Origin: Candidatus Omnitrophota bacterium
GTDB lineage: Bacteria > Omnitrophota > Gorgyraeia > Gygaellales > Profunditerraquicolaceae
Length of the DNA stretch: 64,000 nt
Assembly (NCBI GenBank): GCA_016208765.1
Contig: JACQXK010000001.1
Coordinates: 192,365 to 256,364, forward strand
Reading direction: 5' to 3'
In this document: piece after piece, positions 2,792 through 54,957 of the stretch
How positions within the stretch are numbered: the first letter of the stretch is position 1
Layout of the letters: every line of letters starts with the position of its first letter
The notes under the pieces: model-generated
What the model was told of the DNA's origin: nothing
What the model saw: only the letters and a program-made list of their open reading frames with translations
Database searches by the model: none
Translations under genes and position numbers: made by a program

Positions 2792-3505
2792 ATGCATGTA
2801 TTGATGTTTATGATTACCATAGTCATTCTGTTTATCGTAGCGAGAATTGGTGCTATTGCTTTTGAACTTACCGGACTTAAATTGCACATTTCCCGTTTTC
2901 AAGCACTATCTTGTTTTACGAATACTGGATTTAGTACTAAGGAATCCGAGCTTATTGTAAGTAGCCATCAAAGAAGGAAAATTGCATCGGTACTTATGAT
3001 TATAGGCTATGCAGGATTTGTTAGCCTGATCGCATCATTTGTAAATGCAATGAAACTTCCTGAGCATATAGAAAATACTTCTGTAACTTTTCTAAATTTC
3101 GTCTTTCCTGCTAATTTATTGCCTTCTATAAATCTGGCTTTAATTTTATTTTTTACTTATATTTCCTATAAAGTATTTTTTAGTTCAAAATTGGCGGATA
3201 GGTTAACTGAACTGTTGAAAAACCGCTTAATTAAACGGGGGATATTTGCTCCAATTCATCTTGAAGAATTTATGATTACCTCAAAAGGCCACTGTATTGC
3301 TAATGTTGAAGTTTGTGAAAATAGTTTTGTGTTAAATAAGGAAATAGGTGACCCATATTTTAGAGACTGTGGTATTTCAATATTAGCTATTGAGAGGGAG
3401 GGAGAGATATTGGCTAATTCTCCGGTAAACACCAAGTTGTGTTTGGGCGATAAAATTATTTGCTCAGGTAAAATAGAGAATATTAAAAAAAGTATTTTAA
3501 TTTAA
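2792..3505 (+). CDS. Membrane protein with a C-terminal TrkA-C/RCK_C-like domain.
   Basis: 237 aa with hydrophobic N-terminal segments and a C-terminal region resembling RCK_C (…ILAIEREGEILANSPVNTKLCLGDKIICSG). Confidence 0.5.
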   Translation: MHVLMFMITIVILFIVARIGAIAFELTGLKLHISRFQALSCFTNTGFSTKESELIVSSHQRRKIASVLMIIGYAGFVSLIASFVNAMKLPEHIENTSVTFLNFVFPANLLPSINLALILFFTYISYKVFFSSKLADRLTELLKNRLIKRGIFAPIHLEEFMITSKGHCIANVEVCENSFVLNKEIGDPYFRDCGISILAIEREGEILANSPVNTKLCLGDKIICSGKIENIKKSILI

Positions 3506-3605: not shown

Positions 3606-4700
3606 ATGAAAAAGATATTTGTTGCATTACTTGTTATCGTAATTATTAATTTCCTTTGTTTTACTCAACTACCATCAGTAAGAGCTGAAGAAGCCAGAAC
3701 ATTTATAGGAACGATTGAATCTTTTAGGCCGGTTATGGGCAGGCCGCCAAAGTGGTATTTTGCCAGGTTTACGGCTGTTAATGATATTGGCGAAAAGAAA
3801 GAATTCTGGATATTGGGAGCTTCCGGTGCCTCTCCGACTTCTGTTACTGATTTTGATGGTAAGCCGATGGATAAACCAGGTTATAATCATAGGCCTCAAG
3901 TGGGTAAAAAAGTAGAAGTAAAGTATTCAACCGCTGGAAACGGACGCAATGAGGCTATTTCGATCCGCTATGTTCCTGCGGATTATGTGCCGCAGGTAAC
4001 AGCACCGGCTGCGCAACCAGGTTTAAATTCAACGTCCTCGGCAATCGCCGTTTCCGAAGCCGGAAATAATATCTTTGTAGGAAAAGTTGTAAAGGGCGGA
4101 GTCACTTTCAGCTTGAAATGTCCTTATAGGTTCGTAATTGTTATTGATAATGGCGAGAAGAAAGATGTTTGGATACCAAGGGATAATATGCGCATTACCG
4201 AGCTTAACGGTAATTCAGTATATGGCGCACCTCCGAGAGCAGGTAGAAAAATGGAGATCAAATATTTGACCGGGGACAACGGCCAATACGAAGCAGTCTC
4301 TATGCATTATGTTCCTGAGGATTATGTGCAGAAATCCACAACGCCAGTCTTACTAACACAAACCCCAGCCACGACTACGGAGCAGGAAGTAAAATTTCAG
4401 GGTAATGTTTTTGTGGGTAAACTGGAGAAGGCTACGCCGGTTTTTCACCATATTGACAAGTCACAGCCACGATGCAAGCTTTTGGTTGTAGCGGATAATG
4501 GGGAACAAAAACTTTTCTTTGTATCCGGACTTTGTCCGGTTATTGACGCAAGCGGAAAAGACATAAGCCAAACTTGGGGGAATATTGCATCTTTGCTTAA
4601 GAATGGTGAGCGCCTTGAGGTAAAATATTCGGTTATTAGAAATGGAAACTACATAACAAATGGACAGAACGGAGCGGATTCGATTCGTTGCCTGGATTAA
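3606..4700 (+). CDS. Secreted hypothetical protein containing three roughly 110-aa internal repeats.
   Basis: ATG at 3606 gives MKKIFVALLVIVIINFLCFTQLPSVRAEE, a signal peptide. The ORF track starts at TTG 3585, but the ATG sits just after a G9 tract. The three repeat units each end in '(E/V)(V/I)KY.T..NG.YEA.S..YVP.DYV'. Confidence 0.7.
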   Translation: MKKIFVALLVIVIINFLCFTQLPSVRAEEARTFIGTIESFRPVMGRPPKWYFARFTAVNDIGEKKEFWILGASGASPTSVTDFDGKPMDKPGYNHRPQVGKKVEVKYSTAGNGRNEAISIRYVPADYVPQVTAPAAQPGLNSTSSAIAVSEAGNNIFVGKVVKGGVTFSLKCPYRFVIVIDNGEKKDVWIPRDNMRITELNGNSVYGAPPRAGRKMEIKYLTGDNGQYEAVSMHYVPEDYVQKSTTPVLLTQTPATTTEQEVKFQGNVFVGKLEKATPVFHHIDKSQPRCKLLVVADNGEQKLFFVSGLCPVIDASGKDISQTWGNIASLLKNGERLEVKYSVIRNGNYITNGQNGADSIRCLD

Positions 4701-51346: not shown

Positions 51347-51760
51347 ATGAAAAAGGTTTTATTTGTTTTGCTGACGGTGCTTTGTTTAACTGGTAATATC
51401 CTTGCAGAAGAAACTAAAGATGTATCGCCTGCGCCAGTTGCTAAACCCGGGTGCACAAGCATTGACACCGACGATGTGTCTATCCAGAAGACCCCTCTTA
51501 ATAAATTGGTTCGCGGTTCAGTTAACTCAGCAACATTCTTTTTGGAGATTCCTGCTTCAATTTGGGATGTTTCAGCCAAATCTAATTTCTTCAAAGGGTA
51601 TACCGTGGGTTTTTTTGACGGGTTACTCACCTCTGTAATGCGCTTAGGAACAGGTATTTTTGACGTGGTCACTTTTATTATACCACCGTATAACAAACCC
51701 CTGCTTGAACCCGAATATGCCTTTGATAGCGCAATAAAAAAGATGAGCAGGGGTTGGTAG
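51347..51760 (+). CDS. Small secreted protein, paralog of the convergent neighbour.
   Basis: Signal peptide MKKVLFVLLTVLCLTGNILA. C-terminal motif G.G.FD…PPYNKPLLEPEYAFD is shared with the ORF at 51766..52248 (-). Confidence 0.6.
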   Translation: MKKVLFVLLTVLCLTGNILAEETKDVSPAPVAKPGCTSIDTDDVSIQKTPLNKLVRGSVNSATFFLEIPASIWDVSAKSNFFKGYTVGFFDGLLTSVMRLGTGIFDVVTFIIPPYNKPLLEPEYAFDSAIKKMSRGW

Positions 51761-51765
51761 TAATC

Positions 51766-52248
51766 CTACCATTTTAAAAGCGGTATTTTATATCCTTCCT
51801 TGTTTGGGTCGTCTACTTTATATTTTGGTTTCATTAACGGTTTATCATAAGGAGGCAATCCGCTTGTTGCCACATCAACGCTGCCTGCTATTCCACGTGC
51901 GATTCCTGTGACTATCCCTTCTCCAAAGCCCACAATTGAGCCGACAACAACATTGCTTTTCTTTGAATTTTCTTGAATTTTATCCGGGACATCAACCCAG
52001 GATGTTAACACGTTAATTAGGCCTTCGCCCATTTTATAACCGGCAGTATTTTTATCAAGTTTATTTGTGTTGACGTTTTCCAGAAAAGCGCTTGGGATGG
52101 GCCTTAGGCTCACTCCGGCTACAGAAGGTGCAACTATTTCAGGTTGGGCGTAAATATTTGCGCAGGCAAAGAAGATCAAAGCTAAACTTGCCATTAAGAG
52201 CACTAATTTCTTCATCTTCCACCTCCTTGGCAGCCCCTCTATCCACAC
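51766..52248 (-). CDS. Small secreted protein, paralog of 51347..51760.
   Basis: Signal peptide MKKLVLLMASLALIFFACANIYA. C-terminal motif …GLPPYDKPLMKPKYKVD. Confidence 0.6.
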   Translation of the reverse strand: MWIEGLPRRWKMKKLVLLMASLALIFFACANIYAQPEIVAPSVAGVSLRPIPSAFLENVNTNKLDKNTAGYKMGEGLINVLTSWVDVPDKIQENSKKSNVVVGSIVGFGEGIVTGIARGIAGSVDVATSGLPPYDKPLMKPKYKVDDPNKEGYKIPLLKW

Positions 52249-52427
52249 ACTGGTCGGTGTAGGGACAGGTAACTTTGCGCCCCAGCATTGCTGCTGGTTT
52301 GCCTTTTTTCAATAGGTCCAAAGTAAATATAACATATTTGATTTGCTTATTCAAGGCAGAGGCTGGAAAAGTATTGTAATTAATGTAGGGGTATATATAA
52401 TAAGAATAGCCAGAAAAGGGGGGTTAT

Positions 52428-52820: not shown

Positions 52821-53084
52821 TTTGCTCTAAATTGCCTCAAAATTGCCTCAAATTTCACTTGTCGCGCGAGCCTTCCTGTGTTAAACTATTAAATCTGAAT
52901 TATTTGCTAAGCCCCTATGCAGCACTAATTTTAATTTTTTGTGTTTTAAAGGCATAAATTAGGGCCCATAGCTCAGCCCCGACGTGCTCATTTCATTCGC
53001 GGTCGGGGTTCCGACCGAGCGAAAGCGAGCGTCGGGATTGGTTAAAAGGTTTTCGCTATGGGTAGCGCAGATTTAAGAAGATTA

Positions 53085-53158
53085 GGGCCCATAGCTCAGT
53101 TGGTCAGAGCAGGTGACTCATAATCACTTGGTCCGGGGTTCAAGTCCCTGTGGGCCCA
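53085..53158 (+). tRNA. tRNA with anticodon CAT. It is an elongator Met or a lysidine-modified Ile2 tRNA; it is not an initiator type.
   Basis: Cloverleaf folded by hand: acceptor GGGCCCA/TGGGCCC, D-arm GCTC-AGTTGGTCA-GAGC, anticodon arm GGTGA-CTCATAA-TCACT, T-arm CGGGG-TTCAAGT-CCCTG, discriminator A. Confidence 0.85.
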
Positions 53159-53174
53159 GAGATGAAATTGACGA

Positions 53175-53248
53175 GGGCATTTAGCTCAGTTGGTTAGAGC
53201 GCTACATTCACATTGTAGAGGTCAGAGGTTCAAGTCCTCTAATGCCCA
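53175..53248 (+). tRNA. tRNA-Val (anticodon CAC).
   Basis: Acceptor GGGCATT/AATGCCC, anticodon arm CTACA-TTCACAT-TGTAG, T-arm AGAGG-TTCAAGT-CCTCT, discriminator A. Confidence 0.85.
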
Positions 53249-53347
53249 TTTGAAAAAAATAATGCAGCTTGGCCCCGACGCTAACAAAAAAGCTAGTTCG
53301 GGAAAGTTCTTTAATACACTATATTATCAAAGAAAAGGAGAGCTAAT

Positions 53348-54481: not shown

Positions 54482-54846
54482 TTGGGGTAGGTGGAATGTG
54501 GCTGCCCCTGCGTCAATTGGCGTAGGGGAGGAAAGTCCGGGCTCCGGAGGACAACGTAATGGCTAACAGCCATCCCTCGGTGATAAACCGGGGAGGATTA
54601 GAGCTACAGAGACGAGCCCCCGCGCCTTGGTGCGGGGGAGTGAAACGAGCAATCTCTACGTGGAGCAAGGTTCAATAGGGGATGAGCTTCGTAAAGAAAT
54701 TTATGAGGCAGGTGCTGGTCCGGCGCGTTATTAATCCCGGGTAGACTGCTTGAGTCCCGGCAGAAATGCCGAGGAACAGAGAAATGGTCACTAATGGTGC
54801 GGATATTCGTACTGAAACAGAACCCGGCTTATTCTTCTTGCCCCAA
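54482..54846 (+). ncRNA. rnpB: RNase P RNA (bacterial type-A-like).
   Basis: Contains the universally conserved GGAAAGTCCGGGCTCC (P4 5' strand) and ACAGAACCCGGCTTA (P4 3' strand). The 5' TTGGGGTAGG and 3' CTTGCCCCAA can form P1. Confidence 0.85.
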
Positions 54847-54957
54847 TATTAGTTTAGGGCTAATAGTATATTGTTTGTTGCAAAATCTTGCGATAGGCGA
54901 TATGCGATAAGCATAATGATTTAAAATAAAAAATCAATTCTAAAGGGAGGTAATACA

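Follow-up and report, generated by a model that had tools for sequence, protein, structure and literature searches.

Upstream of a pair of transfer RNA (tRNA) genes in Candidatus Omnitrophota contig JACQXK010000001.1 lies a short GC-rich segment that begins like the first of these tRNAs and then departs from it, which raises the question of what such a segment is and how it came to stand there. We addressed this question in a 64,000-nt stretch of the contig (assembly GCA_016208765.1, positions 192,365 to 256,364 of the forward strand), hereafter the window, and in related loci, which carry L numbers below. Our preferred answer, to which we assign a probability of roughly 0.7, is that the segment is a selfish insertion cassette without an open reading frame (ORF), one of a kind that occupies tRNA 5' ends in Omnitrophota and other groundwater bacteria.

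A first-pass annotation of this DNA had reported a 16-nt duplicate of the tRNA 5' end, and the duplicate proved to be both real and longer. The 16-mer AGGGCCCATAGCTCAG has exactly two matches in the 64-kb window, at 52961-52976 and 53084-53099, against a chance expectation of 0.03, and two matches were found in none of 100 shuffles. On direct reading, the identity extends to 19 nt (ATTAGGGCCCATAGCTCAG, 52958-52976 and 53081-53099). The two copies are 123 nt apart from start to start and enclose a 104-nt insert without an ORF. Only the second copy of ATTAGGGCCCATAGCTCAG starts a tRNA. The upstream copy begins with 4 nt of leader and continues through the acceptor 5' strand to the D-stem 5' strand plus AG; it spans tRNA positions -4 to +16 and is followed by a degenerate D-arm remainder, TTGGTTAAAAGG. 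That it lacks a tRNA body, as first described, was confirmed by ARAGORN and by Infernal (RF00005), neither of which found a tRNA in 52958-53083 even at E ≤ 10. A pseudo-tRNA with an intron is ruled out because both programs find no cloverleaf, and the earlier suggestion of a tRNA pseudogene is right in a limited sense only: there is a displaced, truncated 5' fragment, but nothing that folds as a tRNA. The parts of the locus, in order, are as follows.

52958..52976, + strand: upstream direct repeat ATTAGGGCCCATAGCTCAG, the putative displaced tRNA 5' end; exact 19-nt repeat of 53081-53099
52977..53037, no strand assigned: GC-rich double-hairpin module, 61 bp; 53.6 bits (+) and 39.2 bits (-) with covariance model R1, described below
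53038..53054, + strand: tail TTGGTTAAAAGGTTTTC, apparent degenerate D-loop/D-stem remainder of the displaced copy, then a TTC(G) linker
53055..53062, + strand: 'anti' segment GCTATGGG, complementary to CCCATAGC at 52965-52972
53063..53080, + strand: AT-rich spacer TAGCGCAGATTTAAGAAG from the hairpin to the intact tRNA; homologous to the L004 spacer CATCTCAGATTTAAAAAT
53081..53099, + strand: downstream direct repeat, the true 5' end of the intact tRNA; exact repeat
53085..53158, + strand: intact tRNA with anticodon CAT (ARAGORN and Rfam, 71.6 bits)
53175..53248, + strand: tRNA-Val (CAC), second gene of the conserved pair (ARAGORN and Rfam)

ARAGORN labels the CAT tRNA as Met. This tRNA lacks initiator features and is probably a lysidine-type tRNA-Ile2, because its best E. 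coli matches are genes annotated as tRNA-Ile (86-87% identity over 62 nt).

The GC-rich hairpins of the first-pass annotation were borne out by their pairing and by the significance of the fold on both strands. The module sits in the D-loop position of the displaced fragment, directly after GCTCAG. In its first hairpin, CCCCGAC (52977-52983) pairs with GTCGGGG (53002-53008), and in the second TTCCGAC (53009-53015) pairs with GTCGGGA (53031-53037). Local GC content is 0.54-0.57 compared to 0.40 for the window as a whole, and the 127-nt segment is predicted to fold with -47.9 kcal/mol on the + strand (z = -3.1 relative to shuffles) and -45.4 kcal/mol on the - strand (z = -4.5). The counterpart of the tail TTGGTTAAAAGGTTTTC in the true tRNA is TTGGTCAGAGCAGG, and the tail motif TTGGTTARAGGnnTTCG recurs in L004, L167, L035, L066 and L178. 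In the predicted fold, pairing of the anti segment closes the displaced fragment and the module as one long hairpin.

We compared the locus with its orthologs in related genomes. L001, L002 and L004 are 100% identical to one another across the tRNA spacer except for one unit. L004 carries a 134-nt unit bounded by AATTAGGGCCCATAGCTCAG, and L001 and L002 lack this unit exactly at the repeat, the empty site being a single repeat copy. Therefore, the segment is a clean presence/absence polymorphism at a direct repeat and not a fixed part of the locus. The L004 unit is 81% identical to the window unit over 137 aligned positions, and the two have the same site, tail and spacer, with apical parts that vary freely. 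More broadly, the tRNA pair stands upstream of a gene for a DUF164-type Zn-ribbon protein in about 75 of 80 species-representative Omnitrophota loci, and the unit is missing from most of the 80. The conserved gene order (dnaG, rpoD, ..., a DUF3192 gene, tRNA(CAT), tRNA-Val, the Zn-ribbon gene, an RNase HI gene, RNase P RNA, yebC, ruvC, ruvA) is identical in flanks with and without the unit.

A polymorphic segment of this kind could also be the attL/attR-type scar of a large integrative element, a prophage or genomic island that was later almost wholly deleted. The first-pass annotation had suggested an integration or excision scar, and part of that idea survives, since a direct repeat of a tRNA segment does flank foreign-looking GC-rich DNA and the 19-nt repeat bounds a clean indel. 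However, integrase and other island genes are absent, flanks with and without the unit have the same gene order, the insert is 104 nt long, and the repeat derives from the tRNA 5' end, where att sites usually involve the 3' end. Moreover, homologous units of 123-134 nt stand as such in other genomes, some of them in tandem. The module pattern described below had 0 exact matches in viral contigs, and phage and plasmid collections gave no blastn match, which also led us to reject a phage or plasmid origin. A scar of this type is thus very improbable.

To place the hairpins in a wider context, we scanned metagenome contigs with the pattern CCGACG-N10-40-GGTCGGRGYYCCGACC, which recovered at least 120 stretches; 90 of the stretches listed were low-GC contigs, and these carried 86 full modules. 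The module of the window belongs to this dispersed family. Covariance model R1 was built from an alignment of 47 modules, in which two side-by-side hairpins are 99.4% paired. Compensatory pairs support both stems: pair 2-53 is UA in 26 modules and CG in 20, pair 55-101 is CG in 25 and UA in 21, and pair 56-100 is CG in 37 and UA in 7. An alternative fold, with an outer stem around the central palindrome GGTCGGRGYYCCGACC, is rejected by covariation, with pair 1-101 unpaired in 21 of 47 modules and pair 53-56 in 23 of 47. Modules are about 45-90 nt long and have terminal inverted repeats of the form YYCCGACG...CGTCGGRR. Their inner loops often hold additional YYCCGAC...GTCGGRR hairpins, which suggests that newly arrived hairpins settle in the loops of existing ones. 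The window shares 92% identity over 74 nt with the element before tRNA-Thr(CGT) in L103, along a stretch that runs from the end of the repeat through the module to TTGGT. Relative to the tRNA, the sub-motif GAGCGNAAGCGAG occurs in one orientation in the window and L103 and in the other in L173 and L095, which fits an element that is selfish at the level of DNA.

The family also resides in genes of quite different kinds. Two RNase P RNA genes contain modules (L056, 4266-4342; L055, 2916-2974); these genes are 476-491 nt long compared to the usual ~360 nt, and they still score 161 and 207 bits against RF00010, well above threshold. The L167 ribosomal RNA (rRNA) operon holds five modules (4097-4159, 3974-4036, 3626-3677, 3167-3244 and 1834-1906): two in tandem units before tRNA-Ile, one in the spacer between tRNA-Ile and tRNA-Ala, one just before the 23S gene and one inside it. 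We also observed that the L167 16S match covers 632 model positions over 1,455 nt, and that gene therefore appears to carry large insertions as well. Finally, 27 of the 86 modules (31%) among the matches listed lie within open frames that continue for at least 50 codons on either side. Such frames reach 2,137 codons, and examples of in-frame modules are L160 8558-8614, L175 260-334, L129 12120-12179 and L106 4486-4539. These homes in ORFs, RNase P RNA and rRNA, together with the two orientations, argue for a DNA-level selfish palindrome and not a dedicated RNA gene.

This distribution bears on the proposal of a functional, structured 5' leader for the tRNA operon, which would act as a processing or stability signal or as a decoy that competes for the acceptor 3' strand. 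The segment does lie between the likely promoter region and the tRNA, and its fold is significantly stable. In addition, a hairpin closed by a tRNA-matched anti segment is found in several Omnitrophota species. GCTATGGG is also present in L004, L167 (twice), L022 (twice) and L066, and in the tRNA-Val units of L035 and L066 the segment is GCCAATC, the complement of GATTGGC. The anti segment thus follows tRNA identity, being GCTATGGG for CAT and GAT tRNAs and GCCAATC for Val, and the switch between CAT-tRNA and Val units is compensatory. Folding of the entire precursor is predicted to bring the pseudo 5' strand into a helix with the true 3' acceptor strand. We asked whether the anti segment might shield the real tRNA from the pseudo 5' strand and obtained no support for this idea: the fold swaps partners, and scrambling the anti segment leaves it unchanged (ViennaRNA, which is blind to co-transcriptional and tertiary effects). 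Against a leader function, the unit is absent from the near-identical L001 and L002 and from most of the 80 related loci, its core is a repeat dispersed into ORFs, rRNA and RNase P RNA, and its apical parts differ freely between the window and L004. Rfam 15 contains no family that matches the segment or the related units, at the gathering threshold or at E ≤ 10, so a known RNA family is ruled out. The first-pass annotation had named an Rfam family or a conserved annotated RNA as findings that would speak against its view of the segment, and neither emerged. Its suggestion of a dedicated structured RNA co-transcribed with the tRNAs was not supported, given a core that is dispersed through coding frames, RNase P RNA and rRNA operons, and we consider a functional leader improbable.

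With respect to transcription, a promoter-like TTGCTA-16 nt-TATATA was seen by eye 4 nt before the tRNA in L001 and L004. Compared to these two loci, the window has 26 extra AT-rich bases (TTTAATTTTTTGTGTTTTAAAGGCAT, 52928-52953) between the promoter-like region and the first repeat copy. The -10-like hexamer of the window is degenerate.

We then examined where modules lie relative to tRNA genes. Among the matches listed, 18 of the 86 modules (21%) are within 100 nt of an intact tRNA, whereas 3.4% would be expected on the same contigs (P = 6e-10), and 16 of these 18 are upstream and 2 downstream (P = 0.001). Most tRNA-near modules are housed by a partial duplicate: 20-70 nt before an intact tRNA gene stands a truncated copy of that gene's own 5' part, and the module occupies its D-loop or a place beside it (GCTCAG^...^TTGG, for example); at CAT-tRNA loci the module lies just past the D-arm. 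The loci with this layout are listed by tRNA.

Truncated 5' copy with module, tRNA-Thr: CGT, L103; GGT, L107
Truncated 5' copy with module, tRNA-Cys: L115
Truncated 5' copy with module, tRNA-Arg: TCT, L147 and L085; GCG, L149 and L171
Truncated 5' copy with module, tRNA-Asn: L161
Truncated 5' copy with module, tRNA-Tyr: L168
Truncated 5' copy with module, tRNA-Ala: L195
Truncated 5' copy with module, tRNA-Lys: L176
Truncated 5' copy with module, CAT tRNAs: L027, L095, L173
Diverged 5' fragment only: Phe, L174; Val-GAC, L093 and L178

The recurrence of the layout at so many tRNAs indicates that the window arrangement is no local accident. L167 is an informative case, with two tandem 123-nt units, the period of the window itself, which are 82% identical to the window unit and include its tail (TTGGTTAATAGGAATTTCGCTATGGGC) and anti segment. 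These units are upstream of tRNA-Ile(GAT) in an operon of 16S, tRNA-Ile, tRNA-Ala and 23S genes, and the first 16 nt of that tRNA are the same as those of the CAT tRNA in the window. Within Omnitrophota, the units follow a common scaffold, which starts with a copy of the tRNA 5' end and continues with a hairpin insert, a TTCG linker, a stretch complementary to that copy and a spacer of 14-22 nt. The scaffold is found with different apical hairpins in L022 (two tandem 59-nt units) and L066, and less completely in L016; at tRNA-Val it is present in L035 (two tandem units) and L066.

The main rival to a cassette draws on the same observations. On this account, slippage or unequal exchange duplicated the tRNA 5' region in place, and the spare copy was then hit by a mobile palindromic module and decayed, with no cassette moving between tRNA genes. 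The truncated copies are specific to the adjacent tRNA, are often exact over 9-29 nt and involve more than 10 tRNA species, and this specificity is explained most easily by a local origin. Tandem arrays of constant period in L022, L035 and L167 are in keeping with it, as are modules that insert alone in ORFs and RNase P RNA. However, no hairpin-free truncated 5' copies were found among the 80 Omnitrophota loci. The window unit is moreover homologous to that of L167, at a different tRNA gene, in its non-tRNA tail, anti segment and spacing, and partial 3' copies in L010, L013, L020 and L082 are unlike the resident T-stem, implying a foreign origin. On balance, we regard an origin entirely in place as unlikely and prefer a cassette.

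Partial copies of tRNA 3' ends were observed in their own right. In at least 10 Omnitrophota species, although not in the window, tRNA(CAT) and tRNA-Val are separated by ~125 nt of conserved, structured sequence (CGACCAAAAAGGGGTGCGGGGAAA..TTTCCCCGCG..GGGGTGACAGCGA..GCCAGAGGGGCARAGCCCCTATGGGG..TGGTCG; L006 2503-2846, L008 1483-1629, L017, L028, L032, L044, L056 2554-2705, L063, L073 and L081). Fused to this segment is a copy of the tRNA T-arm and acceptor 3' strand, and L006 has the segment as a tandem duplicate; it has no Rfam match and shows only modest covariation. In L006, L044 and L066 (two places), partial 3' copies of tRNA(CAT) and tRNA-Val have a 20-nt palindrome, CCTGCCTGCCGGCAGGCAGG, precisely at the T-loop (TTCG^AA), and two different GC-rich hairpins occupy the T-loop of partial 3' copies in L010, L013, L020, L058 and L082. 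The T-stems of some partial 3' copies are unlike those of the resident tRNA.

Larger relatives of the unit carry a gene. At least 13 loci have an ORF of 86-98 amino acids encoding a GIY-YIG protein (PF01541, E values of 1e-11 to 2e-14 for the three scanned). Among solved structures, UPF0213 proteins are closest to it, and its similarity to the catalytic domain of I-TevI is weak; it consists of a bare UPF0213-type catalytic domain without a DNA-binding domain. In most of these loci the order is a 5' tRNA fragment with module, the GIY-YIG ORF and the intact tRNA; in L142 and L154 the module alone precedes the ORF, and L093 is exceptional in having the ORF downstream of the tRNA. The gap from ORF to tRNA is 0-25 nt, and the downstream tRNAs are Met(CAT), Arg, Ile(TAT), Thr, Lys, Phe and His. 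In L027 the frame overlaps the tRNA gene, its stop codon being the TAA of the anticodon loop. The ORFs are located as follows.

L027, 2248-2505: GIY-YIG ORF
L095, 1645-1902: GIY-YIG ORF
L173, 562-819: GIY-YIG ORF
L085, 140-385: GIY-YIG ORF
L142, 248-496: GIY-YIG ORF
Further loci with a GIY-YIG ORF: L171, L104, L174, L176, L154, L193, L093

We considered whether the window spacer (53063-53084) might be a remnant of the 3' end of such an ORF, and rejected this because the similarity seen by eye is too weak.

The cassette we favor would have four parts. The first is the original tRNA 5' end (52958-52976), displaced and followed by its decayed D-arm remainder; the second is the 61-bp double-hairpin module (52977-53037), which would have entered at the D-loop position of the fragment; the third is the 8-nt segment complementary to the fragment, which would close the long hairpin; and the fourth is the spacer together with a fresh tRNA 5' end, by which the functional gene would be kept intact. 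Units could spread and be lost through recombination or double-strand-break repair across the shared tRNA 5' segment. It is doubtful, although conceivable, that the break is supplied by the UPF0213-type GIY-YIG nuclease of the larger cassette relatives. Hairpin modules would prefer the loops of existing stem-loops as insertion sites. Copies that entered a functional tRNA would presumably be lethal, leaving survivors only in displaced fragments, and this would explain the 16:2 upstream bias. To judge from its position, the unit would be transcribed from the tRNA promoter as part of the pre-tRNA leader and discarded when RNase P removes that leader, with no function for the host. The window copy itself is most likely neutral to the host, a passenger in the pre-tRNA leader.

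Several observations weigh against this interpretation. Model R1 finds a single module copy in the 64-kb window, and we found neither a GIY-YIG homolog in the window nor an ORF in its unit; mobility within this genome is therefore hypothetical, and we take the window unit to be an ORF-less miniature form. The 5' fragments are specific to many different tRNAs, which is a poor fit to one cassette with a fixed piece of tRNA, and local duplication plus module insertion fits this specificity equally well. The indel in L004 could be a deletion across the direct repeat in the other two genomes instead of an insertion. The anti segment is lacking in most non-Omnitrophota cases. The GIY-YIG link is an association only and may be confounded by taxonomy, and a scan for promoters and terminators returned no site that met its criteria. 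Lastly, two short-read Logan contigs from independent assemblies of the same species, L204 and L205, which carry the gene for the very Zn-ribbon protein of the window, both stop within the tRNA(CAT)/tRNA-Val region, so that the locus evidently breaks assemblies and the insert is unconfirmed there.

A more general proposal, which we put forward tentatively and hold with less confidence than the reading of the window itself, is that these units belong to an undescribed class of tRNA-gene-invading cassettes in groundwater bacteria. In such a class, a bare GIY-YIG (UPF0213-type) gene plus a double-hairpin module would enter the 5' part of a tRNA gene, bring a fresh 5' end, ride the tRNA promoter and leave the old end capped by a hairpin. 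The window unit would be an ORF-less miniature, and the modules would be loop-seeking elements that colonize structured-RNA genes and, in frame, ORFs.

A possible second unit lies downstream of the tRNA pair. The first-pass annotation described CCCCGACG repeats that bracket the pair, and this description was not upheld. By itself the second CCCCGACG (53273-53280) is weak evidence, with at least 2 matches in 5 of 100 shuffles. It belongs to a longer match, however, of AGCTTGGCCCCGACG downstream to AGCTCAGCCCCGACG, and the corresponding feature can be described as follows.

53266..53303, + strand: tentative decayed remnant of a second unit, AGCTTGG^CCCCGACGCT...AGCTAGTTCGGGA; 87% identical to AGCTCAGCCCCGACG

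If this is a remnant, it is composed of a D-arm-like junction, a module start and a degenerate module end. The region is kept as TAGTTCAGCCTCGACGGTAACAAA in L001, L002 and L004, and the equivalent position in L027 holds full modules. Model R1 did not detect 53266..53303 in its search of the window. Because the match extends beyond CCCCGACG and the junction is conserved in three relatives, the downstream occurrence looks like a decayed second copy, an assignment that we regard as probable but tentative.

Other features of the neighborhood can be noted briefly. The Rfam matches were limited to tRNAs, a c-di-GMP-I riboswitch and RNase P RNA. The gene for the last of these (54485-54847) follows the tRNA pair at a distance of ~1.2 kb, beyond the genes for the Zn-ribbon protein and RNase HI, and this arrangement recurs in all 15 related Omnitrophota loci scanned with Rfam; the length of the RNase P RNA ranges from 353 to 491 nt across species. 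The riboswitch (52226-52313, - strand, 58.4 bits) is upstream of a small ORF (51766-52248, - strand). This ORF and a divergent one (51347-51760, + strand) look like paralogs, with a common C-terminal PPY(N/D)KPL(L/M)xPxY motif.

If the cassette reading is correct, selfish DNA can occupy an essential single-copy tRNA gene while the host is spared through regeneration of the 5' end. It would also suggest a testable role for the UPF0213 GIY-YIG proteins, which are very common and of unknown function. Finally, it would account for a number of annotation oddities in metagenome-assembled genomes, including unusual spacers, pseudo-tRNA fragments, overlong RNase P and rRNA genes, and contigs that break off at tRNA loci. 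A search of the literature that included literal sequence motifs, with incomplete full-text coverage and therefore yielding absence of evidence only, did not turn up any account of the module family, of truncated tRNA 5' copies with a hairpin, or of GIY-YIG cassettes located at the 5' ends of tRNA genes. The family is apparently both widespread and undescribed, and we therefore compared it with known systems by their features.

Free-standing GIY-YIG homing cassettes of fungal mitochondria, such as that of Allomyces atp6, introduce a substitute end for the gene that they enter, so that the piece they displace persists as a partial duplicate. The same succession of displaced fragment, GIY-YIG ORF and intact gene is found in L027, L095, L173, L171, L085, L176 and others. 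The window locus shows the partial duplication, the regenerated intact gene and the presence/absence polymorphism. Its insert has no GIY-YIG ORF, whereas those of L027, L095, L173, L171, L085, L142 and L176 do. The cassettes differ from the mitochondrial ones in that the target is a tRNA 5' end and not the end of a protein gene, and in that the nuclease is a bare domain; homing is invoked here by analogy. As at tRNA att sites, the insert lies between direct repeats of part of a tRNA whose gene remains whole. Unlike at these sites, the 5' end is used and not the 3' end, and the 104-nt insert contains no integrase, element genes or remnants of them.

The modules have terminal inverted repeats in common with miniature inverted-repeat transposable elements. 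In place of a short target-site duplication (2-10 bp) and a transposase-encoding insertion sequence, the window unit has a flanking repeat of 19 nt that is tRNA-derived. An unsystematic inspection of the flanks of non-tRNA copies revealed no consistent short duplication, and no transposase-bearing relative was retrieved, GIY-YIG ORFs being the only associated genes. REP, BIME and REPIN elements are proteobacterial repeats mobilized by RAYT transposases (Y1). Like them, the modules are GC-rich imperfect palindromes that occur singly, in tandem or nested, often in transcribed regions and with compensatory stems; as a family they are a multi-copy palindrome with a compensatory stem among the matches listed, and the window has 1 copy per 64 kb. 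REPs, however, are essentially extragenic, while 31% of the modules among the matches listed (27 of 86) lie within long frames. No conserved GTAG-type head was seen in the modules, and REPs are not known to show a bias toward tRNA 5' ends or partial tRNA duplication.

The Rickettsia palindromic elements (RPE), reportedly described by Ogata et al. in 2000 and 2002, are likewise short palindromic selfish repeats. Like these, the module family is also found in coding frames and stable-RNA genes, and frame-keeping insertion into protein and stable-RNA genes is seen in the family, although not in the window copy. The modules are shorter (~45-90 nt) and very GC-rich, with nested or tandem YYCCGAC...GTCGGRR hairpins, and the truncated tRNA 5' copies and GIY-YIG ORFs are features of the module that are not known from RPE. 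The host phyla differ and no sequence relationship is expected, so the two are likened by features only.

A further group consists of GC-rich hairpins in mitochondrial genomes: Neurospora palindromes that flank tRNA genes, yeast GC clusters, Allomyces double-hairpins and sponge RHEs 5' of tRNA genes (PMC2800124; PMC4478555). According to the consulted part of PMC2800124, these are GC-rich hairpins or double-hairpins in AT-rich genomes, mobile or polymorphic among close relatives and located in spacers, in rRNA genes and 5' of tRNAs, all of which resembles the modules. They are organellar, whereas the modules belong to free-living bacteria, and that part of PMC2800124 does not mention a truncated tRNA copy that holds the element. 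Judged by these features, RPE and REP/BIME appear to be the nearest bacterial analogs of the module family, and the mitochondrial GC-rich hairpin elements its nearest analogs overall. If our reading is correct, the modules would be a bacterial counterpart to the GC-rich hairpins of mitochondria and to the coding palindromes of Rickettsia.

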